Shown in pieces: positions 3,041 through 22,332 of a stretch of 22,332 nucleotides of DNA; within the stretch, counting starts at the first letter, position 1; every line of letters starts with the position of its first letter. This DNA is from Myxococcota bacterium. GTDB lineage: Bacteria; Myxococcota; JACRCW01. The notes beneath the pieces are model-generated. The model was not told the DNA's origin. It ran no database searches and saw only the letters and a list, made by a program, of their open reading frames with translations. The position numbers were made by a program, and so were the translations under genes. The stretch is taken from the NCBI GenBank assembly GCA_040752415.1, contig JBFMGU010000179.1:1-22332 (forward strand), given 5' to 3'.

Positions 3041-4345
3041 ATGTGGACCGAGGAACAGATTGTGCCGCTTGCGCTCGACCCTGCGTCGGCGCGGGCGGGT
3101 GCGGAGCTGGCTGTGGCGGCGCGTTGGACCGCGCTGGTGGCCAGCGAGACAGCCATCTCCGGCGTGTGCCAGGGCGGCGGGACGCCGTACCGGGTCGCGG
3201 TGGCGCTGCATGGCCCCCTGATTCTCTGCTCCTGTCCGAGCCGGAAGCGGCCCTGCAAACATGGTCTGGCGCTGTTGCTTCTCCATGTGCGCGACCGGGC
3301 GGCGTTCTCCGACGGAGCGCATCCGTCATGGGCGCTGGAATGGCTGGCGCCGAGCACGGGTCGCAAGGCGGAACGCGGCGACAAGGCCGTCGACACCGAG
3401 GCCAAGGCGAAGCGCGTGGCGGACCGTGAGGCCAAGGTCGCGGCGGGTGTCGGCGAGCTGCAGCGTTGGCTCGCGGACCTGGTGATCCACGGCATCGCCG
3501 ACGCGCCCGCGCGTGAAGGCGCGTTCTGGGAGGGAATGGCCGCACGTCTCGTCGACGCCCAGGCCCCCGGGCTGGCGCGGCGCGTGCGCGACCTTGCCGA
3601 CGTGGCCACCTCCGGCGTGGGATGGCAGGAGCGCATGCTCTTGCGGTTGGGAAGATTGCATCTCCTCGTGGAGGCGTATCCGCGCCAGGATGCGTTGCCG
3701 GCCGACCTGCGAGCAGAGGTGCGCGCGCAGGTGGGCTGGACGCAGAGCCAGGAGGAACTGATGGCGCAGGACGGCGTGCGCGACCAGTGGCAGGTCCTCG
3801 GCACCTCTTTCGATGACGATGGACACCTGCGCACGCGGCGGCAGTGGTTGGCGGGCGTGTCGTCGGGAAGGCATGCGTTGGTGTTGACCTTTGCGGTGGG
3901 AAACCAGCCCTTCATGGCCGCGCCGCCGGTGGGAACCCGGCTGGACGCGGAGCTGGTGTTCTTCCCCGGCGCCAGTCCCATGCGCGCGTTGATCAAGGAG
4001 ATTCTCAGCGCGCCCACGCCGGTGACGACGGTGAAGAGCCTGGCAGGCGTCGCCGGGTTGCACGCGCTCCGCGCGGAGATGCTCGCCAGCAATCCGTGGC
4101 GGGACGTGCTGCCGGCCACCCTTTCCAGCGTGATCCCGGTGCGGGACGGGGAGCGTTGGCTGTTGCGCGACGCCGGGGGTGCGTCGTTGCGGCTACCCAA
4201 CGCCTTCACACGTGGCTGGGAGCTGTTGGCGATCTCCGGCGGACACCCCATCACCATCTTCGGCGAAGCGCGTGACGACGAGATCCTGCCGCTCAGCATC
4301 CTGACGGAAGGAAGGCTCGTCGCGCTGACGCAGGAGCTGGAATGA
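3041..4345 (+). CDS. SWIM zinc finger protein (YehQ-like component)
   Basis: SWIM motif CxC-x(n)-CxH as CSCPSRKRPCKH, preceded by GVCQGGGTPYRV, with downstream FWEGMAARLVDAQAPGLA. The stop overlaps the next start (ATGA, 4342-4345). Confidence 0.88.
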   Translation: MWTEEQIVPLALDPASARAGAELAVAARWTALVASETAISGVCQGGGTPYRVAVALHGPLILCSCPSRKRPCKHGLALLLLHVRDRAAFSDGAHPSWALEWLAPSTGRKAERGDKAVDTEAKAKRVADREAKVAAGVGELQRWLADLVIHGIADAPAREGAFWEGMAARLVDAQAPGLARRVRDLADVATSGVGWQERMLLRLGRLHLLVEAYPRQDALPADLRAEVRAQVGWTQSQEELMAQDGVRDQWQVLGTSFDDDGHLRTRRQWLAGVSSGRHALVLTFAVGNQPFMAAPPVGTRLDAELVFFPGASPMRALIKEILSAPTPVTTVKSLAGVAGLHALRAEMLASNPWRDVLPATLSSVIPVRDGERWLLRDAGGASLRLPNAFTRGWELLAISGGHPITIFGEARDDEILPLSILTEGRLVALTQELE

Positions 4346-5847
4346 CCGCGGACCGCCTCTGGGCCGAGCTCACCCGCGTGGCGTTGATGGGCACCGCGCG
4401 CCAGCCGCCCGCGTGGCCCGCGCTCGAAGGGCCATTGGGCGAGGTGTTGGGCGCGCTCAGGTCGCAGCCCGTCGAGAAGGCGATGTTGTCGGCGTGCGCC
4501 GCGGTGGCGCTCTACCGTCGTGCCGGTGCGCTTCCCACCGTCCTCACCGAGGCGCCGCCGGTTCCCGCGCCCGACGAGCGGCGTCCGGTGTGCAACGCCA
4601 AGGCCGCCCAGCTTCTCCTCACCATGTTGGACGGCCATCACACCGACGTGCTCCCGGAGTGGCTCACCCGGGCGGCGGTGGCCGGGGTTCGCGTGCCCCA
4701 TGCCCAGCTCCCGCGCCTCCTCGATCTCGCGCTCAGCCAGGCAGGCCTGCGTGACGTCGTCACCCAGGTGGCAGGTGCGCGCGGGGCGTGGTTGGCGGAC
4801 CAGAACCCGGCTTGGCGCGCAGCCACGCTGGCTCCACCGGAAGTGGACTGGGACACCGCGTCCCGCGACGAGCGGATGCGTTGGCTGCAGCACCTGCGTC
4901 GCACGGAGGCGGCGCGGGCGCGCGCGCTGGTGCAATCCACCTGGGCCCAGGAGGCCGCGGAGGAGCGGCAGGCGCAGCTCGCGTTGTTCCTCACCGGCCT
5001 CGGTCCCGACGACGAGCCTTTCCTGGAGTCCGCTCTCGACGACCGGAGCAAGAACGTGCGTCGTATTGCGGCGGACCTGCTCTCCCGCCTTCCCTCGTCA
5101 CGGTTGTGCCAGCGGATGACCGCGCGCGTGCTCGCGTTGCTCCAGCACGACCACCAGCGGCTGAACCTGCGCCTGCCCACCACCTGTGATCGGGAGATGC
5201 AACGTGACGGCGTGGAGCCCAAGGCCAGGAGCGGCGTGGGCGAGCGTGCGGGATGGATGATGCAGATGATCACCGCGGTTCCTCCGTCGACGTGGTCGCG
5301 CGAGCTGGGAGCCACCGCCGCCGAGCTGGTGCGCGCCGCGCGGGAAGGTGAGTGGGAAGCGTTGTGGCTGGAATCCTGGGCCGAGGCGGCGGTGCGGCAC
5401 CGGGATGGTGTCTGGGCGGAGGCGTTGTTGGCGTCGTCGCCCAAGCAGCGCGTGGAATTGCCCGCGGAGAGTCTCATCAAGCTGGTGCCCCCGGACCGAC
5501 GGGAGGCGCTGTTCCTCAAGTGGCTGAAGTCGCCCGCCAACGCGCCCAAGGTGCTGCGCGTGATGTTGCACCACCAGGATCCGTGGAGCCCAGAGCTGAC
5601 GCGCGCCACGCTCGAGTCCCTGCGCCATCTCCTCGCCAACGCGGACCGCAACACCGCGTGGGCCATCCGGCCGCTGCTGCAGCGTTTCGCGCTCCACATG
5701 GACCTCAGCGCGCTGGCGTGGCTGGATACGATCCGTCCCGTCGATCCTCGTGCGCTGGCGCAGTGGCTGCAGGTATGGGGCAAGTGCCAGGGGACGCTCT
5801 ATTTCCGCGCTGAAATCCACCGCGCCATCCCGACGGAGAAGCCATGA
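4342..5847 (+). CDS. DUF5691-like alpha-helical protein with a HEAT-like repeat
   Basis: 501 aa, Ala/Leu/Trp-rich. N-terminal WAELTRVALMGT, GARGAWLADQNPAW, and HEAT-like LGPDDEPFLESALDDRSKNVRRIAADLLSRL. ATGA overlaps at both ends. The family name is from recall of motif and context. Confidence 0.8.
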   Translation: MTADRLWAELTRVALMGTARQPPAWPALEGPLGEVLGALRSQPVEKAMLSACAAVALYRRAGALPTVLTEAPPVPAPDERRPVCNAKAAQLLLTMLDGHHTDVLPEWLTRAAVAGVRVPHAQLPRLLDLALSQAGLRDVVTQVAGARGAWLADQNPAWRAATLAPPEVDWDTASRDERMRWLQHLRRTEAARARALVQSTWAQEAAEERQAQLALFLTGLGPDDEPFLESALDDRSKNVRRIAADLLSRLPSSRLCQRMTARVLALLQHDHQRLNLRLPTTCDREMQRDGVEPKARSGVGERAGWMMQMITAVPPSTWSRELGATAAELVRAAREGEWEALWLESWAEAAVRHRDGVWAEALLASSPKQRVELPAESLIKLVPPDRREALFLKWLKSPANAPKVLRVMLHHQDPWSPELTRATLESLRHLLANADRNTAWAIRPLLQRFALHMDLSALAWLDTIRPVDPRALAQWLQVWGKCQGTLYFRAEIHRAIPTEKP

Positions 5848-6926
5848 CGGAAGTCCTGCGCCAACATGCCGAGAAGCTCTTTGCCGACGAGCTCGCCGCC
5901 CTCTCGCGTGCGGATGACAAGCCGCGTCCGCCGCAGTGGAAGCTCTCGCCCTGGGCGGTGACCACGTATCTCATGGGTGGCCGCCTCGACGACGGTACCG
6001 AGATCACGCCGAAGTACATCGGCCACCGGCGGCTCATCGAGATTGCGGTGGCCACGCTGACCACGGACCGCGCGGTGCTGCTGCTCGGCGTTCCCGGTAC
6101 GGCCAAGACGTGGGTGTCCGAGCATCTTGCCGCCGCCATCAGCGGGGATTCCTCGCTCATGGTGCAGGGAACCGCGGGCACGGGGGAGGAAGTCATCCGC
6201 TACGGGTGGAACTACGCGCGGCTGTTGGCGGAGGGCCCGTCGGAGAACGCGTTGGTTCCCAGTCCGGTGATGCGCGCCATGCGGGGAGGCAAGATTGCAC
6301 GCGTGGAGGAGCTCACCCGCATTCCCGCCGACGTGCAGGATGCCCTCATCACCATCCTCTCCGAGAAGGTCCTGCCCATTCCCGAGCTCAACAGCGAGGT
6401 CCTCGCGGTGCAGGGCTTCAACATCATCGCCACCGCCAACAACCGCGACCGTGGCGTCAATGAGCTGTCTAGTGCGCTCCGTCGTCGGTTCAACACCGTG
6501 GTGCTGCCGCTTCCCGACGACATCGCGCAGGAGATCGACATCGTCAGTCGACGGGTGCAGGCGCTGGGGGGTGCGTTGAAGCTGCCCGCGGAGGCACCGC
6601 CGCTGCCGGAGATCCGTCGGGTGGTGACCATCTTCCGGGAGCTGCGCAGTGGAATCACCGAGGACGGGAAGACCAAGGTCAAGACGCCCAGCGGTACCCT
6701 GAGCACCGCCGAGGCCATCTCGGTGGTGAGTCATGGCATGGCCCTCGCCACGCATTTTGGCGACGGACAGCTCAAAGCCTCCGACCTCGCCGCGGGATTG
6801 CTCGGCGCGGTGGTGAAGGACCCGGTGCAGGACCGCGTGGTGTGGAAGGAGTATCTCGAGACGGTGGTGAAGGAGCGCGAGGGTTGGAAGGACATCTACC
6901 GCGCGTGTCGGGACGTCACGGAATGA
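5844..6926 (+). CDS. MoxR-clade AAA+ ATPase (YehL-like, AAA_5)
   Basis: Walker A GVPGTAKT, Walker B IARVEE, sensor-1 IATAN, arginine finger SALRRRF. GGAG precedes the start. ATGA coupling on both sides. Confidence 0.92.
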   Translation: MTEVLRQHAEKLFADELAALSRADDKPRPPQWKLSPWAVTTYLMGGRLDDGTEITPKYIGHRRLIEIAVATLTTDRAVLLLGVPGTAKTWVSEHLAAAISGDSSLMVQGTAGTGEEVIRYGWNYARLLAEGPSENALVPSPVMRAMRGGKIARVEELTRIPADVQDALITILSEKVLPIPELNSEVLAVQGFNIIATANNRDRGVNELSSALRRRFNTVVLPLPDDIAQEIDIVSRRVQALGGALKLPAEAPPLPEIRRVVTIFRELRSGITEDGKTKVKTPSGTLSTAEAISVVSHGMALATHFGDGQLKASDLAAGLLGAVVKDPVQDRVVWKEYLETVVKEREGWKDIYRACRDVTE

Positions 6927-9127
6927 GCATCCACGTCTTTGGCATCCGGCATCATGGACCCGGTTCGGCCCGGAGTCTCCGTCGTGCGCTGGAGGAGCTG
7001 CGCCCGGACTGCGTGCTGGTGGAAGGTCCGCCCGACGCCAACGACGTCATCAAGCTCATCACGCATCCGCAGATGGAGCCGCCGGTGGCGCTGCTCATCC
7101 ACGCCGCCGACAATCCCAAGCGCGCCGTCTACTACCCTTTCGCCGTGTATTCGCCGGAGTGGCAGGCGCTGCACCATGCGCAGACGAACAACGTTCCCGC
7201 GCGCTTCATGGACCTTCCCCAGGCGCTGCGCATGGCCAACCGTCCCAATGAGGACGACGACGACTACCGCGGTCCGCGCGCCGACCCCCTCAAGTTCCTC
7301 GCCGAGGCCGCGGGGTACAGCGACAGCGAGCGCTGGTGGGAGCACATGGTGGAGGAGCGACGGGAAGGGACCGAGATCTTCCACGCCATCCTCGAGGCGA
7401 TGACCGCGTTGCGCGAGGCCATTCCCGAGCCACGTCGGGGATTCGAGCGCGAGCGTGAAGCGTACATGCGACAGACCATCCGCGCGGCGGAGAAGGAGGG
7501 CGCGCAGCGCGTGGCGGTGGTGTGTGGCGCGTGGCATGCGCCCGCGCTGGTCTCTCCCGGGCCCGCCAAGGACGACGCGGCGCTGCTCAAACCGCTGGCC
7601 AAGACCAAAGTGCAGGTGACCTGGGTTCCGTGGACCTACGGACGGCTCACGTTCGAGAGCGGTTACGGCGCGGGTGTGGAGGCGCCGGGCTGGTATCACC
7701 ACCTCTGGACCGAAGAACGGCACGTCACCGTCGGGTGGATGACGTTGGTGGCGCGTCTGCTGCGCGAGAAGGACCTCGACGCTTCCGCGGCGCACGCGGT
7801 GGAGGCGGTGCGGCTCGCCGACAACCTCGCGGCACTCCGTTCCCGGCCCATTCCGGGATTGCCGGAGATGATGGACGCGGCGCTCGCGGTGTTGGCGCAC
7901 GGGAACGAAGTGCCGCTCAAGCTGGTGCGACAGAAGCTGCTCGTCGGGGAACGCCTGGGCCGCGTCCCCGACGATGTCCCGACGGTGCCGCTGCACCAGG
8001 ACCTGGCGCGCCTGCAACGACGCCTGCGCCTCCCTCCCGACCCGGAGCCGCGCGAGATCGACCTGGACCTGCGCAAGCCCAACGACCTCGAGCGCAGCCA
8101 CATGCTGCACCGGTTGGAATTGCTGGGCATCACCTGGGGCGAGGAGCTGGAGGTCACCGGCAAGAGCGGCACCTTCCACGAATACTGGCGTCTCGAGTGG
8201 GAGCCGGAGCTGTCGCTGGCCATCATCGAGGCCAGTCGATTCGGCAATACCGTCGAGGACGCCGCCGCGGCGTACGTGCGCACGCACCAGGTGACGCAAG
8301 CGGACCTGCCCCGACTCACCGAGCTGTTGCAGAAGTCCCTCCTGGCCTCGCTACCCGACGCGGTGCACGCGGTGATGGAACGCCTGGAGAGCGCGGCCGC
8401 TTTGGCCAGCGACGTGTCCCTGCTGATGGATGCGCTGCCGCCGCTGGTGAACGTGCTCCGCTATGGCAACGTGCGGCAGACGGATGTGACGGTGGTGCGG
8501 CACGTTGTCGACGGGATGATGGCGCGCATCACCATCGGAATGCCCGGCGCGTGCACGTCCCTCGACGACGAGTCGGCGGAAGAGATGCTGGAGCGCATGC
8601 TGGCGGTGCACAACGCCGTGGCGCTGCTGAGAGAGGAAACGCATCTCGAAAGCTGGCAGGCGTTGATGCAGACGTTGATGGAGCAGCGCACGTTGCACGG
8701 GCTCATCGCCGGTCGGGCGTGTCGGATCCTGCTGGATGCGCGGCGGATGACGTCGGAGGAGGCGGCGCGCCGGTTGGGTCTTGCGCTTTCCACCGCGTCG
8801 GAGCCGCCTGCCGCCGCGGCGTGGCTCGACGGATTCCTGCGCAACAGCGGGGTGCTCCTGCTGCATGACGTCGAGCTGTGGAACGTCGTGGACGGGTGGC
8901 TGCACGGGCTGCAACCGCAGGCGTTCACCACGCTCCTGCCGCTGCTGCGCCGGACGTTCTCCACGTTCACGCCACCGGAACGTCGACAGATGGGTGAGCG
9001 CGCCAAACACTCCGGACCGGGAGCGCCGCGGCTTCAGGTGGTGGAAGGCGTGGATCCCGCGAGGGCGGAGCTGGTGCTGCCCGTGATCACCACGTTGCTG
9101 GGGTTGGAGGTGCGTCGTGGCGGATGA
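6923..9127 (+). CDS. DUF5682 / YehM-like protein
   Basis: Start placed at ATG 6923 (ATGA overlap with the AAA+ stop), giving MSIHVFGIRHHGPGSA. Motifs VLVEGPPDA, YYPFAVYSPEWQA, REAYM, VVCGAWH and SGYGAG. 734 aa. Confidence 0.87.
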   Translation: MSIHVFGIRHHGPGSARSLRRALEELRPDCVLVEGPPDANDVIKLITHPQMEPPVALLIHAADNPKRAVYYPFAVYSPEWQALHHAQTNNVPARFMDLPQALRMANRPNEDDDDYRGPRADPLKFLAEAAGYSDSERWWEHMVEERREGTEIFHAILEAMTALREAIPEPRRGFEREREAYMRQTIRAAEKEGAQRVAVVCGAWHAPALVSPGPAKDDAALLKPLAKTKVQVTWVPWTYGRLTFESGYGAGVEAPGWYHHLWTEERHVTVGWMTLVARLLREKDLDASAAHAVEAVRLADNLAALRSRPIPGLPEMMDAALAVLAHGNEVPLKLVRQKLLVGERLGRVPDDVPTVPLHQDLARLQRRLRLPPDPEPREIDLDLRKPNDLERSHMLHRLELLGITWGEELEVTGKSGTFHEYWRLEWEPELSLAIIEASRFGNTVEDAAAAYVRTHQVTQADLPRLTELLQKSLLASLPDAVHAVMERLESAAALASDVSLLMDALPPLVNVLRYGNVRQTDVTVVRHVVDGMMARITIGMPGACTSLDDESAEEMLERMLAVHNAVALLREETHLESWQALMQTLMEQRTLHGLIAGRACRILLDARRMTSEEAARRLGLALSTASEPPAAAAWLDGFLRNSGVLLLHDVELWNVVDGWLHGLQPQAFTTLLPLLRRTFSTFTPPERRQMGERAKHSGPGAPRLQVVEGVDPARAELVLPVITTLLGLEVRRGG

Positions 9128-10265
9128 GCGCCTCCGACGATGGCGTCTCGTTCTCGGCGGCGGCGAGGCCGAGGGAACGGGGCAAGGGCTCGAGGGCACG
9201 GACGCAGGCATGGACCGCGCGTTGCAGGCTCTCTATGACTCCGACCGTACCGGCGCGCTGGGCAGCTCCTCCCCCAACGTCCCGCGCTGGCTGGGCGACA
9301 TCCGCACGTACTTTCCGTCGAGCGTGGTGCGGGTCATGCAGCAGGACGCGCTCAACCGGCTGGGCATGAAGCAGATGCTGCTGCAGCCGGAGATGCTCTC
9401 CGCCATGCAGCCCGACGTGAACCTGGTGGCCAACCTGCTCTCGTTGTCCGCGGTGATTCCCACGCGCACGCGGGAGACGGCGCGCATGGTGGTGCGTCGG
9501 GTGGTGGCCGACCTGGAGCAGCGACTGGCGAGCCCGTTGCGTCAGGCGGTGATGGGCACGCTCAACCGGGGAATCCGCAATCGTCGTCCCCGGCTGCACG
9601 AGATGGACTGGCACCGCACCATCCGCGCCAACCTGCGCCACTACCAACCGCAACAGCGCACGGTGATCCCCGAGACGCTCGTCGGGTACGGGCGGAGGCG
9701 GAGCAGTGTGCAGGAGATCATCCTGTGTATTGACCAGAGCGGTTCCATGGCACCCTCGGTGGTGCACGCGGGTGTGTGCGGCGCGGTGCTGGCGTCGTTG
9801 CCGGCGGTGAGCACGCGCATGGTGGTGTTTGACACGTCGGTGGTGGAGCTCACGGAGCATCTCGCCGACCCGGTGGAGCTCCTCTTTGGTGTGCAGTTGG
9901 GTGGTGGCACCGACATCAACCGCGCGCTCGCGTACTGCCAGGGGCTGGTCACGCGGCCCGCGGATACCACGCTGGTGCTGATCAGCGACCTGTTCGAGGG
10001 TGGTGACGTCGGAGAAATGATCGCGCGCGCCGCGGAGCTGGTGCACTCCGGCGTGACCGTGGTGGTGCTGCTGGCGTTGGATGACCAGGGTGCGCCCGCG
10101 TTTGATCACGAGGTGGCGGGGGCGCTGGCGTCCCTGGGGATTCCCGCGTTTGCGTGCACGCCGGACCTCTTTCCCGAGCTCATGGCCGCCGCGCTCCGAC
10201 GGGAGGACCTGGGCATGTGGGCCTCCACGCACGGCATCACGCACAGTGGTTCTTCCGCGGGGTGA
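9117..10265 (+). CDS. von Willebrand factor A domain protein (YehP / VWA_CoxE-like)
   Basis: MIDAS motif DxSxS (IDQSGSM), GGGTDI and LISDLFEG, plus the CoxE-like DWHRTIRANL. GTG start with GGAGG at 9106-9110. Overlaps the previous gene by 11 nt. Confidence 0.9.
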   Translation: MADERLRRWRLVLGGGEAEGTGQGLEGTDAGMDRALQALYDSDRTGALGSSSPNVPRWLGDIRTYFPSSVVRVMQQDALNRLGMKQMLLQPEMLSAMQPDVNLVANLLSLSAVIPTRTRETARMVVRRVVADLEQRLASPLRQAVMGTLNRGIRNRRPRLHEMDWHRTIRANLRHYQPQQRTVIPETLVGYGRRRSSVQEIILCIDQSGSMAPSVVHAGVCGAVLASLPAVSTRMVVFDTSVVELTEHLADPVELLFGVQLGGGTDINRALAYCQGLVTRPADTTLVLISDLFEGGDVGEMIARAAELVHSGVTVVVLLALDDQGAPAFDHEVAGALASLGIPAFACTPDLFPELMAAALRREDLGMWASTHGITHSGSSAG

Positions 10266-14953: not shown

Positions 14954-17900
14954 TCACGGCTCGATCACGGAGAGGTACAGGCTGCGCTCGAAGGAGGTGT
15001 CCTCGCCGCCGGGGGGCCAAGGTGACGTCGCCAGCCACGCCGCGATGATGCGGCCACCGGCGGTGAAGAGTTTGTGCTCATAGGCACCCTGGGCGTCGTA
15101 GCGCAGTCGAGAGGTGGAGCCCACATCCCACCGGTGCACCGGAATGCCAGTCACTGTTTCGTCGACGAGGCCGCGCGCGGGCGTGCCGCGCAACGCAATG
15201 ACGCCGCGGTTTCCGGTGATCACCGGTCCCAGCACCTGCCCTCGCGGAGCAACCTCTTCCACGCGATCATCGACGGGGTTTCCGTCGGAGGCGAGGCGTC
15301 GCCATTTCACCGCGGCGCCCGCGTTGGTCCACTCGACCCAGAACAGCACCGCGCCGGTTTCCATCCGCGCGAGCCGGAGGTGGCTCCCGACGGGAAGGAC
15401 CACGTACGGCCCGGCCTCCACCGCGCCCGAAGTCCCCGCGTCGGCGAAGATTGGGAACAGCCACACGTGCCCCGTGTACGCCGACGCCGCGATCAGGTAG
15501 CCGCGCTCCGTGGCCACAGCCTGCCACTCCGTCACCGTTCCGCCAGGCATGAGCTCGGCGCGCCACTTCGCGACGCCATCGTCGTCGAGGAGGATGGCCG
15601 CCAAGGCGGAGAACACGCCAGGGAACAGCAGCAACGTGCCGTCATGTCCCGGCGTCAGCGAGAGGTCTGGTGCCACGCCGGTGCCAACGCGTGCGGTGAA
15701 CGTGGGGCCGCGGATGACGTCGCCAGTGCGATCCAGCGTCCGTACCTCCACGGTGTCAGGAGAATCTCCCGAGTGCTCGCGGAAGTCCGAAGCAAGAAGC
15801 CACCCGTCAGATGTAGGCGCCAGCGCCACGCTCAGGGCGTGGTGAATGCCGAGGCATTTCTCGTCGAGGACCTGGAAGGACTCCTTCGTGCGCGCCAGGC
15901 GCAGCGTCGCGGTGTAGTTCGGCCCCTCGCCAATGTAAGACCAGACTGCGGCAATCTCTCCGTCGTCACGGCCCGCCACGGCCAGGGAAACCGCCGCGTT
16001 GGTGTCCACGGGAATTCGTGCACAATCCCGTTCCGCCATGCATCCGTTGCACGCGGAGACGTCCCATCCGCAGCGCTCATTGCACCCGAGCGTGCCCGAG
16101 GCGTAGCCCAGCCCGCCGCAGGTCGTCGGCGCGGTTCCGTCGCAGGACTCGGTCCGCTCCATGCGGCTGCAGCCGACACTGCCCGGGCAGCGTGTGCACC
16201 TGTTGGTGACGCCGTTGCCGCACAGGGCATCGCCGCACGCGGGACCGTGTTTCCAGGGTGGAATGCACGTCTGGGGCGCGGAGGTACGCGATGGCGCCGG
16301 AGCAGCCAGCGCGCCAGGCTCAATCCGCATGAGCTGGATGCGACGCGCGGAGCTGTTGATGTCGTCGGAGATCCATCCCGCCACGGCGCCGTCGGCAACG
16401 GGAACGAGCTGGAAGAACTCCTCGAACGCGGGCTCGCGCGTGAGGCTCTGGGGCGCTCCCACTCCGTCGCCGCGCGTGACCAGCAACGCATCCAGGTGGG
16501 AGCCCACGCCGGCCGCGCCGGTGTAACCCGGGAGGAGCATCAACCAGCCTTCCCTCGTCGACACGACAGGCGAGGGATTGAAGTACAGCGGGAAAGAGCC
16601 CACCAGTGCAGGCGTATCCAGCAGCGCGCCGTCGGGAGTCAGGCGGGTCCACATGACGCCGTGCGTGCCATTGAAGGCCGCGGTGGTCAGCGCCACCTCC
16701 TCGCCGTTCCACGCCAGGCGCGGATAGTCCATTCCCTCCAGGGAGATGTGGACCTCCTCGAGCGTGCCGTCGTGGTTGATGTTCACCACCCACATTCCGT
16801 TGTTGACCCGGAACGCGACGAGGAAGTGGTCCTCCACGTACAGCGCGGAAGGGTTGTTGACGTAGGTGCGGTGCGCCAACGTGTTGCGCCACAGCACCGT
16901 GCCGTCGTCCTGGACCAGCGCGGATTCCATGATGGAATGTTCCGGCTGCCACACCACCAACGTGGTTCCCGGCGCGCCGGGGGTCAGCGCAATGTTGTCC
17001 CGCCACGAGATGGCAATGGGCCCGAGGGACACGGGTTCCGTGACGGGATCGCCGTGGATGTCCAGGGGGTGGAGCAAGAGCTCTTCATTCCCCGTGGCCA
17101 GCATCCAGCCCTGCGTCGTCGCGGACAGCGCCACGTCGACGGCGCCGGTCAGCTCCAGGCACTGCGCGCGGAGCAGCTGCAGCTCGGTGTCCCACGAGGC
17201 GAAATGGACCGTGCCCGCCCCGCGCTCCGTCCATTCCAGCCACACGCCGGCCAGGATCCCGTCGTGGGCGGCCAGGGCAAGGTTGCCCGCGCCGCGCGAC
17301 TTCACGGGCGGTCGCACGCACGCACGGATGGCCGGATGGTCCGTGCACGACGAGCAACCCGCGCTGTCCCAGTGACACGTGTCCGCGCAGGCGAGTGTTC
17401 CTCCCGCGAAACCGAGCTGCACACAGTCCACCGCGCCGAGGTCGACGCCGTCACACGGCTCACGCAGCGAAGGCTCGTAGCAGCAGGCGGGACACTCCAC
17501 GCCGCACGACGACGTGCACGTGGTGCCTTCCGGGCAGTTGGCGCAGGTCTCGCGCACGCCGTTGCCGCACGCGCCTGGGCACGCGGGTTCAGGAAAGAGC
17601 CCCGGCTCCCCCGCGCACCTTCCGTCGACGCAGACCGCGTTGGACGCGCAGCCGAAACCGCAGGGGTATCCGTCGGGAACCGGCGCGGCCACGCACCGAC
17701 CGCCCATGCAGATGGGCATGGTGCTGCAGCTGGTCACCGAGCCGCACGCGGTTCCGTCGGCGGATGGCACGTGGGAACAGCCGGTGGCGTCGCAGATGTC
17801 GTCGGTGCATGGGTCGTCGTCGACGCACTGGGCGGAGTCGGGCACGGCGGTGCAGCCCACGTCGGGATCACACAGGTCCACGGTGCAGGCAACGCCGTCG

Positions 17901-18478
17901 TCGCAGGTGACGGGGAAGCCCAGGCAGCTGCCGGCGGAGCACTGGTCGTGCGCGGTGCAGGGATTTCCGTCGTCGCACGGGCCCGAGATCGGCGCGGCCA
18001 CACAGGTGCCCGAGGCGGGATCCCATTGGTCCATGGTGCAGGCGTTTCCGTCGTCACACGCGGGCGGCTCTCGCGCCACGCCGTGCAGCGCAACGTCCAC
18101 GCCCGGCGCATTGGCGGAAGTGTTGTCCACGCGCAGGCGGCCCACGTGTTCGCGCGCCTCCGTCGGGAGGAACGTGACGTCCACTAACGCGCTCTCCCCG
18201 GGCGCCAGCTCCTCCGGCACCGCACCAACGGAAAACGCCAGCCCGTCCAGCACCGCGGCGCGCGAGATGCGCACGGCGACGTCGCCGGTGTTGCGGAGGG
18301 TGAGCGAGGAAAGCGCCCGCGTCCCGACGATGGTCTCGGACCACGCGAGCTCGGTGGGGGAGACCTCCAGGCGGGAAATCGTCGTCGCCAGGCCACCGCC
18401 GTCGTCACGGCAGCCGGGCAACCAGGCAATCAGACAGACAAGCGCCCCGACGAAGCGGTGCCCACGGGGGTTGCGCAT
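14954..18478 (-). CDS. Large Cys-rich lipoprotein: Ig-like (ASH/choice-of-anchor D-like) domain, CDDGNxCT repeats, and two Cys-rich + beta-rich modules
   Basis: Signal peptide with lipobox-like LPGC (Cys23). Ig-like LTLRNTG...LAPGES..VDVTFLP. Four CDDGNxCTxDxC-type repeats. Two CGNG...ExCDG...CxxLG[FY]AxGTLxC modules typical of myxobacterial disulfide-rich proteins. Confidence 0.87.
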   Translation of the reverse strand: MRNPRGHRFVGALVCLIAWLPGCRDDGGGLATTISRLEVSPTELAWSETIVGTRALSSLTLRNTGDVAVRISRAAVLDGLAFSVGAVPEELAPGESALVDVTFLPTEAREHVGRLRVDNTSANAPGVDVALHGVAREPPACDDGNACTMDQWDPASGTCVAAPISGPCDDGNPCTAHDQCSAGSCLGFPVTCDDGVACTVDLCDPDVGCTAVPDSAQCVDDDPCTDDICDATGCSHVPSADGTACGSVTSCSTMPICMGGRCVAAPVPDGYPCGFGCASNAVCVDGRCAGEPGLFPEPACPGACGNGVRETCANCPEGTTCTSSCGVECPACCYEPSLREPCDGVDLGAVDCVQLGFAGGTLACADTCHWDSAGCSSCTDHPAIRACVRPPVKSRGAGNLALAAHDGILAGVWLEWTERGAGTVHFASWDTELQLLRAQCLELTGAVDVALSATTQGWMLATGNEELLLHPLDIHGDPVTEPVSLGPIAISWRDNIALTPGAPGTTLVVWQPEHSIMESALVQDDGTVLWRNTLAHRTYVNNPSALYVEDHFLVAFRVNNGMWVVNINHDGTLEEVHISLEGMDYPRLAWNGEEVALTTAAFNGTHGVMWTRLTPDGALLDTPALVGSFPLYFNPSPVVSTREGWLMLLPGYTGAAGVGSHLDALLVTRGDGVGAPQSLTREPAFEEFFQLVPVADGAVAGWISDDINSSARRIQLMRIEPGALAAPAPSRTSAPQTCIPPWKHGPACGDALCGNGVTNRCTRCPGSVGCSRMERTESCDGTAPTTCGGLGYASGTLGCNERCGWDVSACNGCMAERDCARIPVDTNAAVSLAVAGRDDGEIAAVWSYIGEGPNYTATLRLARTKESFQVLDEKCLGIHHALSVALAPTSDGWLLASDFREHSGDSPDTVEVRTLDRTGDVIRGPTFTARVGTGVAPDLSLTPGHDGTLLLFPGVFSALAAILLDDDGVAKWRAELMPGGTVTEWQAVATERGYLIAASAYTGHVWLFPIFADAGTSGAVEAGPYVVLPVGSHLRLARMETGAVLFWVEWTNAGAAVKWRRLASDGNPVDDRVEEVAPRGQVLGPVITGNRGVIALRGTPARGLVDETVTGIPVHRWDVGSTSRLRYDAQGAYEHKLFTAGGRIIAAWLATSPWPPGGEDTSFERSLYLSVIEP
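17777..18058 (-). repeat. Four CDDGNxCT-type cysteine repeats within the lipoprotein
   Basis: CDDGNACTMDQWDPASGTC, CDDGNPCTAHDQCSAGSC, CDDGVACTVDLCDPDVGC, CVDDDPCTDDICDATGC. Confidence 0.85.
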
Positions 18479-18587
18479 GCACCCTGGGGTCTAACGTCGG
18501 CGGAAGGAGGTCGCAGTGCGTGGTGGGCGGGGCGTGCCCTCATCGGCCCACTGCGTCGGGACACGTCAGTGCTGCGTCGGAATGCTG

Positions 18588-18854
18588 TAAGGTGCCGATC
18601 GGCGTTGCAGACGTCGTAGGCGGGCCACGACCTGGAGTGCGGCGGGCCCTCGCCGCCCTGGCCAGCGCCGAGTGTGTCCTCAACGACCGCTCGCGGAGCT
18701 GGGGACTCTTCGGCGACGGGGGAATGCACGGCGTTGCGCCTGGTGGACCGTTGGCGGGTGCAGAACCCGCGCGGCGCTGGCCAGGGCGGCGAGGGCCCGC
18801 CGCACTCCAGGTCGTGGCCCGCTTACGATGTCTGCAACGCCAATGGGCACCTTA
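18588..18854. mobile_element. 267-bp non-coding element with 83-bp inverted repeats (MITE-like / long palindrome)
   Basis: Left arm 18588-18670 matches the reverse complement of right arm 18772-18854 at 79 of 83 positions, around a 101-bp spacer. Ends read TAAGGTGCC...GGCACCTTA. The inverted repeat is certain; mobility is inferred. Confidence 0.65.
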
Positions 18855-18976
18855 TCCTGACGCACCCCTCACAATCGCCGGTCGCAATGAAGTCGCGCTC
18901 AACGTGACACCACCAGCCAGCGGTTCGTCAGTCCGGACAGGTTCACGTCGTCGTCGCGTCACACCGGGCGTCACGA

Positions 18977-20020
18977 TCAACCTGGGCGGGAACCGCGCAA
19001 CCTCCCGCCAACCGGATACTCCCGCGTTGCGAGGTACGCGCGGAGTTCCTGCGTGCGCGCGGTGATGGGAAGCCCGCCTTCCTCGAGCCAGTGGCGCACC
19101 TCACGCGCAGCCTCCATCACCAGGATGTGCTTCAGCTCCTCCCAGGTTGCCACGAACTGGATCATGCGCAGGAGGCCCATCAGGGTCCGACGCGCATGGA
19201 GCGACGCTGGTCCCAGCGCGTGGAACGCCGCCAGGATCTCCCGCTCTGCTCGCCACGACGACCGACGGGCGCGGAGGTTGCGCTCCAAGAGGGTGTGGCG
19301 CGCGCGCAGGATGGCGCCCGGACGACGGCGGTGTTGCCGCGCAATCTCCTCGAACCGGCTCCGCATCACTTCGGGATCCGCAAGCTCGGTGGGCTCCAGC
19401 AGGAACCGCGAGTGGTGGGCCGCGGTGTCAATGCAACGTCGCACCAGCTTCTCCCGCGCGCGCGGAGAACGCGCGGAAAGATGGCGGGCCGCAAAGTGCA
19501 GGACCCGCGCTTCAACCTTGTCGTAGTGCGGGAGACAAAGCGGCTGATAGAGCGCCAACAGGTTCTGGTGCAGCACCGTCGTGGGGACGAACGTCTGCAG
19601 CAGGCGGCGCGCATCCTCGGGCTCCAGCGCTTCCTTGATCACCCCCACGCTCAGCACCTGCGCTGCGGCCACCAGCATGGCGTCCAGCAGCTCCGCGGCC
19701 CGCTCCCCACGACGGGAACGCCGGATGAGCCGCAGCAGCTCGCGCGCCCGCAGCCGCACGCGTTGTTGCACCGCTGACGACCATCCCGGAGAGGCCACCA
19801 GCCGGGCCGGGATCTCCTCGAGCAGCAACCGTCGCTCGCGGGCCGGGATGTAGAGCGCATTCTCGAAGACGTAGCGACCGTAACGCTCCGGCTCGCCGCG
19901 GATGAGCCAGGGCTCCCAGCGGTGGGACTCGCAGTAGAGCTCCTTGAGGATGGGTGAATCCGTGAACAGCCAGGACCCGTAGAGGTAGACGACGTCGTCA
20001 CCAAAGCGCATGCCCTGCAT
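18977..20020 (-). CDS. Hypothetical Arg/Leu-rich helical protein, possibly the detached substrate-binding domain of the upstream dikinase-like enzyme
   Basis: 347-aa ORF starting 4 nt after the upstream stop (20025), with AAGGGG upstream of ATG 20020. GC3-biased codons. No clear catalytic motif. The function is inference only. Confidence 0.75.
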   Translation of the reverse strand: MQGMRFGDDVVYLYGSWLFTDSPILKELYCESHRWEPWLIRGEPERYGRYVFENALYIPARERRLLLEEIPARLVASPGWSSAVQQRVRLRARELLRLIRRSRRGERAAELLDAMLVAAAQVLSVGVIKEALEPEDARRLLQTFVPTTVLHQNLLALYQPLCLPHYDKVEARVLHFAARHLSARSPRAREKLVRRCIDTAAHHSRFLLEPTELADPEVMRSRFEEIARQHRRRPGAILRARHTLLERNLRARRSSWRAEREILAAFHALGPASLHARRTLMGLLRMIQFVATWEELKHILVMEAAREVRHWLEEGGLPITARTQELRAYLATREYPVGGRLRGSRPG

Positions 20021-20024
20021 GACG

Positions 20025-21662
20025 TCAGCCCCTTGCTCCCAGCGCATGGCGCAGCGCTGCCAGCAGCGGGTCGGGAGGAACCGACTCCGGCGCGAGATCC
20101 CATTCCACGTGCAATCGGGTCTTCACGCGCCGCTCCAGTTGCCGCAGATGCTGCAGGACGTGCTCCACCCGCAGCGGCCCGGCCAGCTCCCGGGACATGA
20201 CGTCATCCAGCAGCGCGGAGACGGTGATGCGGGTTGGCCGGTCCTCCAGCTCATGCAGGTGTGAAGCGCGCAGGCACAATGCGCGGTGCGTCGGGGACGG
20301 GGAGGAAACCGCGCTGCGTCCCCGCGCCCGCGACCCACGCAGCACCAGTCCGCGGTTGGCGTCCACGGTGACCGTCTCGCCGTTGAGGAAACGGCCGCGC
20401 GTGGCCTTCTCCACGCCCACCAGGCACGGAATGCCAATCTCCCGCGCCACGATGGCGGTATGGGACAGCGGCGAGCCCTCCTCGGAGATGATGCCGGCCG
20501 CCTTGTACAGGGCGGGCAGCCACTCCGGGTCCGTGGCGCTGACGACGAGGATGTCGCCCGCGGAGGCGCGGGACACCTCGGAGACCTCCCGCAGCACACA
20601 CACCGGTCCGGAGGCCACCCCCGGCGAAGCCACGCGCCCGTGCGCCTCCCTGGCCCGGCGTCCCGTCGTCGTGGACCGCGCGGTGATGGGCCGCGCCTGG
20701 AGCAGCGTCAGGTCGCCCTCATCCATGCACCATTCCACGTCCACCTCGTGCCCGTAGCGCTCCCGGATGCGCGCGAGCGCGGCGCCGATCTCCACGATCT
20801 CGTCGTCGCTGAGCGTGCTCTGCCCGGCCAGCGCCTTGGGCACACCGGCCAGCGCGAGCAGGTTGTCGTACGGGAGGTGGAAGGTGCTCTCTCCCAGCGG
20901 CGTCTCGACGGGCTGTCCGGGCAGCAGGTGCTCCAACCGCGGTGCCAGCGTGGTCATCTCCGTCTTGTACGTGAGCTCCGCGGAGGAATGGTGCGCGTGG
21001 ACCACGTAGGTGTCCGTGGGCACGGCCCCGTCGACGACGCCATGGCAGGTCCCGTACGCGGCGGTGACCATCATGGCGCGCGGATGCCAGGGTGAACGGC
21101 TGAACGCCACCCCGGACTTCTCCGCGTTGACCGCCACCTGCACCACCAGCGCCAGCGACGAGGCGGCGGCGGCCAGGCGCTGCTCCGCGGGCGCGTGCAC
21201 GTCGGTGGCGTGGAGGAAGCCCGAGCGCACGCTCTCCCACGTGCAGTGCTGGATCGTCGTGGCCACGTCGTCCCGCCGGCACATCTGCGTCGTGAAATGC
21301 CCGGCAAAGGAGCGTGACGCGCTGTCCTCCATCACCGCCGACGAGCGGACGATGAGCACGTCCCGGTGCCGGAAGAAGCCGGCGAGCGCGCGCATCAGCT
21401 CGACGGGGATGGGCAGCTGGAGGAAGCGGTGGCGCAGCTCCTCGTCGTCATCACCGGCACCCCACGCCGCGGCCAGCTGGCGCAAGGCGCGCGCGCCCTG
21501 GCCCTGGAACAGGCGGGAGACCACTTGCCGCGGGATGATGGCGCCGTGTGGCACGCGAGCCACCTTCATCCCCACCAGCCGGCACAGCGACGCTCCCTTG
21601 CCGCCCACGTCGGAGACCGCCGCGCCCGTCTCCGGGGAGATGGGAAGGAGCACGGACTTCAC
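20025..21662 (-). CDS. PEP synthase/PPDK-family protein: ATP-grasp domain + phospho-His swivel domain, no PEP/pyruvate-binding barrel
   Basis: ATP-grasp motifs VGGKGASL, IVRSSAVMED...SFAGHF, VVQVAV...SGVAFS, DVEWC and LLQARPIT. Swivel domain ASPGVASGPV, GDILV..TDPEW and GSPLSHTAIVAREIGIP (His codon 20460-20462). Only ~70 aa follow. The GTG start overlaps the upstream stop (GTGA). Confidence 0.9.
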   Translation of the reverse strand: MKSVLLPISPETGAAVSDVGGKGASLCRLVGMKVARVPHGAIIPRQVVSRLFQGQGARALRQLAAAWGAGDDDEELRHRFLQLPIPVELMRALAGFFRHRDVLIVRSSAVMEDSASRSFAGHFTTQMCRRDDVATTIQHCTWESVRSGFLHATDVHAPAEQRLAAAASSLALVVQVAVNAEKSGVAFSRSPWHPRAMMVTAAYGTCHGVVDGAVPTDTYVVHAHHSSAELTYKTEMTTLAPRLEHLLPGQPVETPLGESTFHLPYDNLLALAGVPKALAGQSTLSDDEIVEIGAALARIRERYGHEVDVEWCMDEGDLTLLQARPITARSTTTGRRAREAHGRVASPGVASGPVCVLREVSEVSRASAGDILVVSATDPEWLPALYKAAGIISEEGSPLSHTAIVAREIGIPCLVGVEKATRGRFLNGETVTVDANRGLVLRGSRARGRSAVSSPSPTHRALCLRASHLHELEDRPTRITVSALLDDVMSRELAGPLRVEHVLQHLRQLERRVKTRLHVEWDLAPESVPPDPLLAALRHALGARG

Positions 21663-22237
21663 CGGTCCACCCGTCGGGGCTGGCGGCGGTCCAGGAACAG
21701 CAGCGCGGAGGGGCGCCCGGGCAGCGGGCCGACGGTCACGCAGAAATCCACGCGCTCACGGAAGGCGCGCGGCAGGTCATCCCACCCCGTCATGGGCGGA
21801 CGACCGGACACATTCACCGACGTGGACACCAACGGGACTCCTGCGTCGCGGGCCAGCGCGCTGACCCAGTGGCGCGGTTGGCGCAGCCCGATGAGGCCGC
21901 TCTCCACCAGCTCGTCGGCCGGTTGGGGCACGCGCGGGTCCGGCGCATAGGGGAACAGCAGGGTGGTGCCGGGGTGCTGCGACCAGGCCTCGTCGAAGCG
22001 GCTGCGCCAACGGGGATGGATCAGCGCGCGCGCCCAGGTGACGTCGTGCGGGATGACCGTGGCAGGACGGCGTCTCCGCTTCAGTGCGCCAATGCGCCGG
22101 ACCGTGCGCGGCAGCAGCGCGTTTCCGCTCAGCCCATAGATGGTGTCGGTGGGAAGGATGGCCACGTCCCCGCGCGCGAGCCTGGCACACCACAGGGACC
22201 ACGCGTGGCACGCATCCGCGTCGAGGTAGACGTCCAC
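21659..22237 (-). CDS. TsaC/YrdC/Sua5/YciO family protein (threonylcarbamoyl-AMP synthase-like), single domain
   Basis: Motifs ILPTDTIYGL, KxR (LKRR), IGLRQP, PLVSTSVNVSG (SxN) and GRPS. 192 aa. GTG start preceded by AAGG. Confidence 0.9.
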   Translation of the reverse strand: MDVYLDADACHAWSLWCARLARGDVAILPTDTIYGLSGNALLPRTVRRIGALKRRRRPATVIPHDVTWARALIHPRWRSRFDEAWSQHPGTTLLFPYAPDPRVPQPADELVESGLIGLRQPRHWVSALARDAGVPLVSTSVNVSGRPPMTGWDDLPRAFRERVDFCVTVGPLPGRPSALLFLDRRQPRRVDR

Positions 22238-22241
22238 CGCC

Positions 22242-22331
22242 TTACTTGCCGGGACGGCTCACCGGGCGCGACGGCGTGGTCACCGTGCCGCTGCTGCCCT
22301 TGCCGCCGGAAGGACGGGAGGGCGCGGGGGA
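22242..22331 (-). CDS. 3' end of an upstream gene truncated by the window edge (Pro/Ser/Gly-rich tail)
   Basis: Minus-strand frame reads SPAPSRPSGGKGSSGTVTTPSRPVSRPGK-stop with mostly G/C third positions. TAA at 22242-22244 lies 4 nt before the TsaC-family start. It is absent from the ORF track. Confidence 0.6.
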   Translation of the reverse strand, partial: SPAPSRPSGGKGSSGTVTTPSRPVSRPGK

Positions 22332-22332
22332 G

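Follow-up and report, generated by a model that had tools for sequence, protein, structure and literature searches.

At the right-hand end of the window, a 22,332-nt stretch of Myxococcota DNA that constitutes an entire contig (C89) of an 11-Mb, 520-contig assembly (genome G000), four consecutive genes are arranged on the minus strand. They encode, from 5′ to 3′, a small GKGG-repeat protein, a TsaC-like enzyme, a dikinase core and a helical protein. Together they constitute a real, conserved and very rare operon, in which known folds are brought into an undescribed combination. The small-protein gene is represented in the window by its 3′ end (22242–22332, minus strand), which comprises the last 29 codons and the stop codon and was assigned from its reading frame and its continuation on a second contig (C85). 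The following gene (21659–22237, minus strand) encodes a stand-alone YrdC/TsaC-family enzyme of 192 amino acids (aa), which was placed in an operon-specific clade using Pfam family PF01300, sequence motifs and a phylogenetic tree. The dikinase core (545 aa; 20025–21662, minus strand) contains an ATP-grasp domain and a phospho-histidine swivel domain, with His401 as the histidine, and ends in a tail domain of ∼85 aa, as assigned by Pfam and alignment. The 347-aa helical protein (18977–20020, minus strand) is, on the basis of its structural model, the probable acceptor-binding subunit of the dikinase and has a predicted fold like that of the rifampin-binding domain of rifampin phosphotransferase (RPH).

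The junctions between the four genes were read directly. The small-protein gene ends with a TAA stop codon (22244–22242) and is separated by a 4-nt gap (22241–22238) from the GTG start codon of the TsaC-like gene at 22237. The TGA stop codon of the TsaC-like gene (21661–21659) and the GTG start codon of the dikinase gene at 21662 share a GTGA overlap. The dikinase gene ends with TGA (20027–20025), and a second 4-nt gap (20024–20021) precedes the ATG start codon of the helical gene at 20020. This ATG is located at the same position, within one residue, in 12 of 13 aligned homologues and lies three residues further in for the remaining one. A longer open reading frame (ORF) from 20047 was rejected as the real start from the start positions of these 13 homologues. 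The original prediction made for this DNA had given the same gene order on the minus strand, with both 4-nt gaps and the GTGA overlap, and all of these elements were confirmed. Neither Rfam nor tRNA features were detected in positions 18000–22332.

The TsaC-like protein matches the Pfam family Sua5_yciO_yrdC (PF01300) with 75.9 bits (cut-off 25.1). Its three motifs, named in the original prediction as PTDTxYGL, KxR and STSxN, are found as PTDTIYGL at residue 29, KRR at residues 53–55 and STSVN at residues 138–142. K53, R55, S140 and N142 compose a complete KxR/SxN tetrad, and the PTDT, KxR and SxN motifs are retained in 20 of 22 sequences of the TsaC-like clade. The roles of the tetrad in ATP binding and of the threonine-binding residues are described in the accessible part of PMC10321239. 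When the protein is aligned with the threonine-binding residues T33, S181 and R195 of Pa-Sua5, the threonine of PTDT and S177 match directly, and the C-terminal arginine matches only with a one-residue shift. The operon enzyme shares with TsaC/Sua5 proteins (TIGR00057 and NF007919; PDB entries 1hru, 6f89 and 2eqa) the YrdC fold, the PTDT, KxR and SxN motifs, a histidine and the arginine of (V/G)xRxP; its likely chemistry is thus ATP-dependent adenylation of carbamate. It differs from them in lacking the canonical WPGP and DGG motifs, in a short insertion, in being an extra copy and in having no TsaD partner in the operon. Its scores against both NCBIfam equivalogs fall below the cut-offs (63.7 versus 123.2 for TIGR00057 and 34.5 versus 175 for NF007919).

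A complete tetrad would also be expected of a housekeeping tsaC gene that is followed by unrelated kinase genes by chance, which was the alternative given in the original prediction. The paralogue count and the phylogenetic placement that had been proposed as checks argue against this alternative. The genome contains four PF01300 genes, namely a Sua5-type gene on contig C223 (193.9 bits), a YciO-like gene on C93 (175.6 bits), a gene on C52 (171.4 bits) and the window copy, which scores lowest (75.7 bits). The pattern is the same in all five further carrier genomes that were searched: among their YrdC genes, the operon copy has the lowest score (30–88 bits) and coexists with one to three copies of 125–206 bits. 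A search of 5.8 billion protein clusters returned 14 clusters at or above 122 bits and one at 77 bits, with the remaining TsaC-family matches at or below 65 bits. A maximum-likelihood tree was calculated from 45 rows, consisting of 18 operon-clade sequences, the sister sequence P0027, the three paralogues from the same genome and 23 further TsaC-family database matches, after removal of three duplicates. The 18 operon-clade rows are monophyletic (support 99/98), and a 100/98 branch separates the clade from the paralogues and other family members, in a tree that is rooted only at its midpoint and whose comparison rows are the best database matches to the query, a biased sample that is not shown to represent housekeeping t6A (threonylcarbamoyladenosine) genes. 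The paralogue counts in this and the five other genomes, together with the tree, led to rejection of the housekeeping explanation, which is scarcely credible. The sister protein P0027 has an AT-rich-type composition.

The distribution of the operon bears on the same question. Among 61 related genomes, a close match is present only in G003 (59% identity) and G034 (49% identity), with the next best match at 55 bits, and in both the TsaC-like gene is followed by the dikinase and helical genes as in the window. Seven carriers among 401 sampled Myxococcota genomes were identified with a helical-protein profile, and a one-family search found four carriers among 208 genomes, the same four and none new. 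The three enzyme genes are adjacent in G000, G003, G034, G314, G135, G348 and G286 and on the metagenome contig L031. A further metagenome contig (L030) carries the dikinase and helical genes only and ends where the TsaC-like gene would be located. The gene order recurs at eight other loci, including the partial L030, and the arrangement is not a product of chance. These collection-wide counts are lower bounds, given that a contig pattern scan yielded three loci and missed three that were later found by genome search. The flanking genes differ by locus, with a heparinase-like gene in G000, PBP1C in G003, LysR in G034, a nonribosomal peptide synthetase (NRPS) gene in L031 and an integrase and an OTU gene in G314, which indicates that the conserved unit is the operon itself. 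The search for a conserved three-gene cluster suggested with the original prediction was productive. The three outcomes that would have refuted that prediction, namely a single TsaC/Sua5 gene, its grouping with housekeeping orthologues and a linkage not conserved elsewhere, all failed to appear. The linkage is conserved across families of the phylum, and a clade present in only seven of 401 genomes fits poorly with a universal function. The four genes very probably constitute a dedicated accessory operon that is not part of housekeeping t6A synthesis.

The dikinase-like protein contains the Pfam domains PPDK_N (residues 18–339) and PEP-utilizers (residues 368–438), with no Pfam match to a third domain. 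The swivel histidine, His401, is located in an SPLSH motif and aligns with the histidine of PpsA. The closest solved relative is a phosphoenolpyruvate (PEP) synthase (PDB 8a8e, E = 4.3e-47), in which the histidine motif is also aligned, and the ATP-grasp and swivel domains are contiguous as in PpsA. Both the GGK motif and the swivel histidine are invariant in nine of nine orthologues. The operon protein is a dikinase core without the PEP/pyruvate barrel. It ends at 545 aa with the ∼85-aa tail and scores 190.3 against TIGR01418 (cut-off 739.75) and 132.7 against the rifampin phosphotransferase equivalog NF041857 (cut-off 999). In a model of the G003 orthologue (mean predicted local distance difference test score (pLDDT) of 83.6), the core is followed by a predicted disordered linker and a small α/β tail at residues 463–544. 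Across the genome, PPDK_N genes are common, with 13 matches on eight contigs (the window, C201, C506, C477, C65, C191, C214 and C473). Contig C506 holds a full-length RPH/PigC-type protein of 869 aa, and two of the 13 matches have a TGA codon in frame.

The helical protein belongs to no Pfam or NCBIfam family. The family is small, with 12 clusters in a word-indexed search of 5.8 billion proteins. An exhaustive search of 1.84 billion proteins gave 45 representatives, 14 of them close; 43 of the 45 are stand-alone proteins of 298–355 aa, and two are fragments (221 and 44 aa). No match was obtained by tblastn in the plasmid and phage collections. An AlphaFold model built from 14 sequences has a pLDDT of 93.8 and a predicted template modelling score of 0.88. 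The best match of the model is the rifampin-binding domain of rifampin phosphotransferase (RPH-Lm), and the aligned chain range lies inside that domain, whose subdomains fall between residues 314 and 753 according to the accessible text of PMC4844700. In a Foldseek search with the model, nothing was found at E ≤ 0.001, and the RPH entries had the top probabilities (0.69–0.92) with E values of 0.12–0.31. A profile search of PDB sequences gave no sequence link between the helical protein and RPH (best E = 0.11, ribosomal L7), and an hhalign comparison of the helical family with the genome's own RPH-type protein gave a probability of 0.05. The ESM Atlas returned weak leads for the helical protein, namely nucleotidyltransferase/KNTase_C and DUF4037 clusters at 0.84–0.88 with few shared features.

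Over 21 close and 29 distant members of the helical family, H165 is present in 49 of 50 sequences, and E294, E295 and a basic residue at position 297 are present in all 50. In RPH, Glu667 and Lys670 position the phospho-histidine, as stated in the part of PMC4844700 that was available. The E-x-x-(K/R) patch of the helical model is inferred to fall at about the position of Glu667/Lys670, as interpolated from the aligned ranges rather than from a residue-level superposition. The helical protein is also strongly basic, as noted in the original prediction, with a net charge of +18 in the window and of +1 to +22 across the family, positive in 21 of 21 members. One family member, P0054, is lysine-rich instead of arginine-rich (K24, R14). 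To judge from the composition of P0054 and of P0027, the sister to the TsaC-like clade, this system or a related one may occur outside the high-GC Myxococcota.

The dikinase core and the helical protein look like a dikinase that is split in a new way. RPH (PDB 5fbu and 5hv1) and the prodigiosin ligases PigC, RedH and HapC share with the operon proteins the ATP-grasp domain, the phospho-histidine swivel and a similarly folded helical acceptor domain, although sequence similarity between the acceptor domains is undetectable. RPH is a single chain with the order ATP-grasp, acceptor domain and swivel, whereas in the operon the ATP-grasp and swivel domains are joined and the acceptor domain is a separate protein. 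Two-gene members of the RPH type are known. HpeHI, CreHI and the phenylphosphate synthase PpsAB each require both subunits, as described in the accessible portion of PMC12167813. In these enzymes, so far as that portion describes them, the ATP-grasp domain stands alone and the swivel is joined to the acceptor domain, in contrast to the operon, and the enzymes act on phenols in catabolic clusters that contain neither a YrdC enzyme nor a repeat protein. A split into ATP-grasp plus swivel and a separate acceptor domain was not found in the literature examined. The dikinase core and the helical protein are likely to form one two-subunit RPH-type dikinase, and the fold match lends support to the dikinase pair of the original prediction.

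The assignment of an RPH-type acceptor subunit raises the question of the acceptor. All characterised RPH-type acceptor-domain enzymes use small molecules, to the extent that the available parts of PMC4844700 and PMC12167813 describe them. The operon enzymes may likewise act on a small molecule in biosynthesis, inactivation or catabolism, as RPH, PigC, HpeHI, CreHI and PpsAB do, with the small protein in an accessory role, for example as a scaffold, chaperone, regulator or immunity protein. Canonical TsaC acts on an amino acid in free form, and the operon enzyme retains the residues that align with the threonine-binding threonine and serine of TsaC (PMC10321239, accessible part). One locus (L031) lies beside an NRPS gene. 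Against a small-molecule pathway, the loci compared share no further gene for biosynthesis, transport or regulation in addition to the enzyme trio. This is the main rival to the interpretation developed below, in which the acceptor is the small protein, and is unlikely but serious.

The genes to the right of the window, which the original prediction had pointed to as worth reading, continue the operon on another contig and reveal a dedicated Gly-Lys repeat protein. The window part of the small-protein gene ends in SRPVSRPGK. By tblastn, the head of the gene was located at C85:22010–22489, at the end of a 22491-nt contig of the same assembly (C85:22010–22491 corresponds to L043 12011–12492). 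The last 9 nt of C85 are identical to the 9 nt with which the reverse complement of the window begins, which places the assembly break within the tandem GKGG/SRPS repeats. On C85, the small-protein gene follows an unrelated heparinase-like gene after a 173-nt gap and therefore opens the operon. Orthologues are encoded directly upstream of the TsaC-like gene, with 153 aa in G003 and 205 aa in G034 (orthologue range 151–205 aa). The protein consists of a helical head and a series of Gly/Lys/Ser/Pro-rich repeats around GKGG (two to six in complete members), ending in GK. All four complete close members end in SRPV(S/T)RPGK despite variable repeat numbers. The G034 and G286 versions are more distant but are also located directly upstream and end in GK; that of G286 has 90 aa and ends in GGK. 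In G000, G003, G034 and G286, the small-protein gene is immediately 5′ of the TsaC-like gene, and the C-terminal GK is present in all.

The N-terminal domain of the small protein is restricted to the operon. Only six clusters were found among 5.8 billion, and three of the six are on contigs equal in size (43685, 9852 and 16188) to contigs of the TsaC-like family; the genome's own copy is on C85. As far as such sequence searches reach, the domain has been found only in this operon. An ESM Atlas search with the small protein gave scores of at most 0.82, with TerB-like folds at a TM score of 0.39 as a weak lead. A dedicated small gene that adjoins the modifying enzymes and encodes a conserved end is a trait of RiPP (ribosomally made and post-translationally modified peptide) and carrier-protein pathways. 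The strict retention of the C-terminal PGK while the repeat number drifts is as expected of a recognised substrate end, and both this retention and the restriction of the N-terminal domain to the operon argue against a small-molecule acceptor with the small protein in an accessory role. The small protein is plausibly the substrate of the operon enzymes, at slightly under an even chance.

The proposed mechanism, in which the small protein is the substrate, would begin with ATP-dependent phosphorylation of His401 on the dikinase core. The phosphate of His401 would then pass to an acceptor that is held or presented by the helical subunit. This acceptor, and also the substrate of the TsaC-like enzyme, would be the small protein's flexible tail, which contains two to six GKGG repeats and the invariant C-terminal Gly-Lys. 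In the most speculative steps, the TsaC-like enzyme would use ATP and bicarbonate to make a carbamoyl- or aminoacyl-carbamoyl-adenylate, the adenylate carbonyl would be transferred to lysine ε-amines to form ureido groups, and the dikinase would phosphorylate the ureido group or a neighbouring serine or threonine. The system might then be a protein-level counterpart of t6A formation, in which an (aminoacyl)carbamoyl group is placed on the GKGG and C-terminal lysines and the dikinase phosphorylates or activates the ureido group or a neighbouring residue; this general idea is tentative and rather unlikely. The specific chemistry named above, in which the TsaC-like enzyme would form ureido groups on lysine and the dikinase would transfer phosphoryl groups, is still more doubtful. 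The explanation in its entirety (operon, two-subunit dikinase, tail substrate and chemistry) is assigned a probability of roughly 0.4.

HypF, TobZ, NodU and StdF provide points of comparison for the proposed transfer to lysine. Like the chemistry proposed for the operon enzyme, theirs is of the YrdC adenylate type and delivers the carbamoyl group to a side chain of a protein or peptide. HypF modifies the C-terminal cysteine of HypE. The operon differs from these enzymes in that their YrdC domain is fused to a Kae1-like transferase domain, which is found in none of the four operon proteins, and in that they have no dikinase partner. StdF, a NodU-like carbamoyltransferase of a RiPP pathway, carbamoylates the ε-amine of a peptide lysine that becomes the C-terminal residue, as reported in the accessible part of PMC13174530. 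This peptide lysine carbamoylation is a recent precedent for the lysine-ureido idea (PMC13174530, same part). The original prediction had stated that no described pathway pairs TsaC with a phospho-histidine dikinase, and no paper on a YrdC–dikinase pair was found in a search that did not extend to subscription journals.

Several observations weigh against the small protein as the acceptor and against the proposed chemistry. The enzyme trio is constant, whereas four of the eight loci have a variant of the small gene or another gene in its place, which favours a small-molecule substrate. At the G314 and L031 loci, a divergently placed Gly/Lys/Ala-rich ORF is found instead, its strand being inferred solely from codon choice (lysine AAG versus the rare leucine CTT). 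At the same two loci, where the tetrad is lost, the TsaC-like protein (L029 583–1050 for G314; L031 3741–4304) has PTDGGYAL in place of the PTDT motif and lacks the KxR lysine and SxN; the dikinase and helical genes look intact. The TsaC-like protein of this sub-clade is probably non-catalytic, judging from these substitutions. The GKGG ORF is absent at the G135 and G348 loci, where a different small gene is located downstream of the helical gene. These downstream genes (L040 5267–5908 and L041 6202–6702, both on the minus strand) are a homologous pair, one with a Gly/Ala/Ser/Lys-rich tail and the other ending in APKK, and they may replace the upstream repeat protein. Domain scans of the operon proteins gave no Kae1/TsaD-like transferase, protease or exporter. 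The helical and small proteins are both strongly basic, so that simple electrostatic binding is not favoured. Moreover, all instances come from metagenome-assembled genomes or metagenome contigs. Across the loci, neither a protease nor an exporter nor a recognition element is conserved, in comparisons that included no search aimed at recognition elements.

The positive charge also bears on a nucleic-acid-directed system, in which the basic proteins would bind RNA or DNA, the enzymes would install or process a carbamoyl-type base modification and the small protein would be a histone-tail-like binder. The tail of the small protein resembles Lys/Gly/Pro-rich DNA-binding tails. All 21 helical-family members and all five small proteins that were compared carry a net positive charge, and TsaC chemistry normally ends on a nucleobase, that of t6A (PMC10321239, accessible part). 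Such a system is improbable. The charge of the TsaC-like protein is not conserved (net −7 to +14), domain scans gave no nucleic-acid-binding or nuclease domain, and the missing Kae1/TsaD-like transferase and the lack of tRNA and Rfam features in the operon region point in the same direction. PADLOC assigned no defence model to any of the five proteins submitted.

The next gene after the operon (14954–18478, minus strand) encodes a predicted lipoprotein of 1174 aa that combines an Ig-like domain with Cys-rich repeats of the Dicty_CTDC type. Its position beside the operon is not conserved in other genomes. A consensus scan of positions 18300–19200 gave no promoter-like site, and the single terminator-like site (18457–18443) sits inside this next gene. 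A palindromic element of 267 nt (18588–18854) is located between the stop codon of the helical gene and the next gene. Its 93-nt arms are 91% complementary and are separated by an 81-nt spacer, with an RNA fold energy of −223.9 kcal/mol. Copies of at least 180 nt are present on 65 other contigs of the genome, many of them at contig ends, so the element belongs to a dispersed repeat family similar to miniature inverted-repeat transposable elements or repetitive extragenic palindromic sequences. A five-gene cluster on the plus strand (3041–10265) encodes a SWIM zinc-finger protein, a DUF5691 protein, a MoxR-type AAA_5 ATPase, a DUF5682 protein and a CoxE-like VWA protein. This MoxR–VWA-type system is uncharacterised and unrelated to the operon. 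A search of sequencing runs returned no RNA set and one DNA run, which contained 0.06 of the sampled words.

To our knowledge, the YrdC/TsaC fold serves very few reactions, namely the formation of threonylcarbamoyl-AMP for t6A and of carbamoyl-AMP in HypF and TobZ/NodU-type enzymes, and the function of YciO is unsettled. The operon, which is very rare and has been seen in uncultured Myxococcota and metagenome contigs only, defines a further YrdC clade that is tied to a phospho-histidine dikinase and to an operon-only protein. Novel in this operon are the dedicated repeat protein and the manner in which an RPH-type dikinase is divided. With the fused form and the HpeHI-type split already known, this division would represent a third arrangement of RPH-type dikinases, and the predicted model provides a first fold assignment for a helical family that has no Pfam or NCBIfam entry. 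The four genes offer a compact system for testing a new use of YrdC/TsaC chemistry. If the proposed explanation is true, the operon would produce either a kind of post-translational modification that has not been described or a biosynthetic intermediate bound to a carrier.

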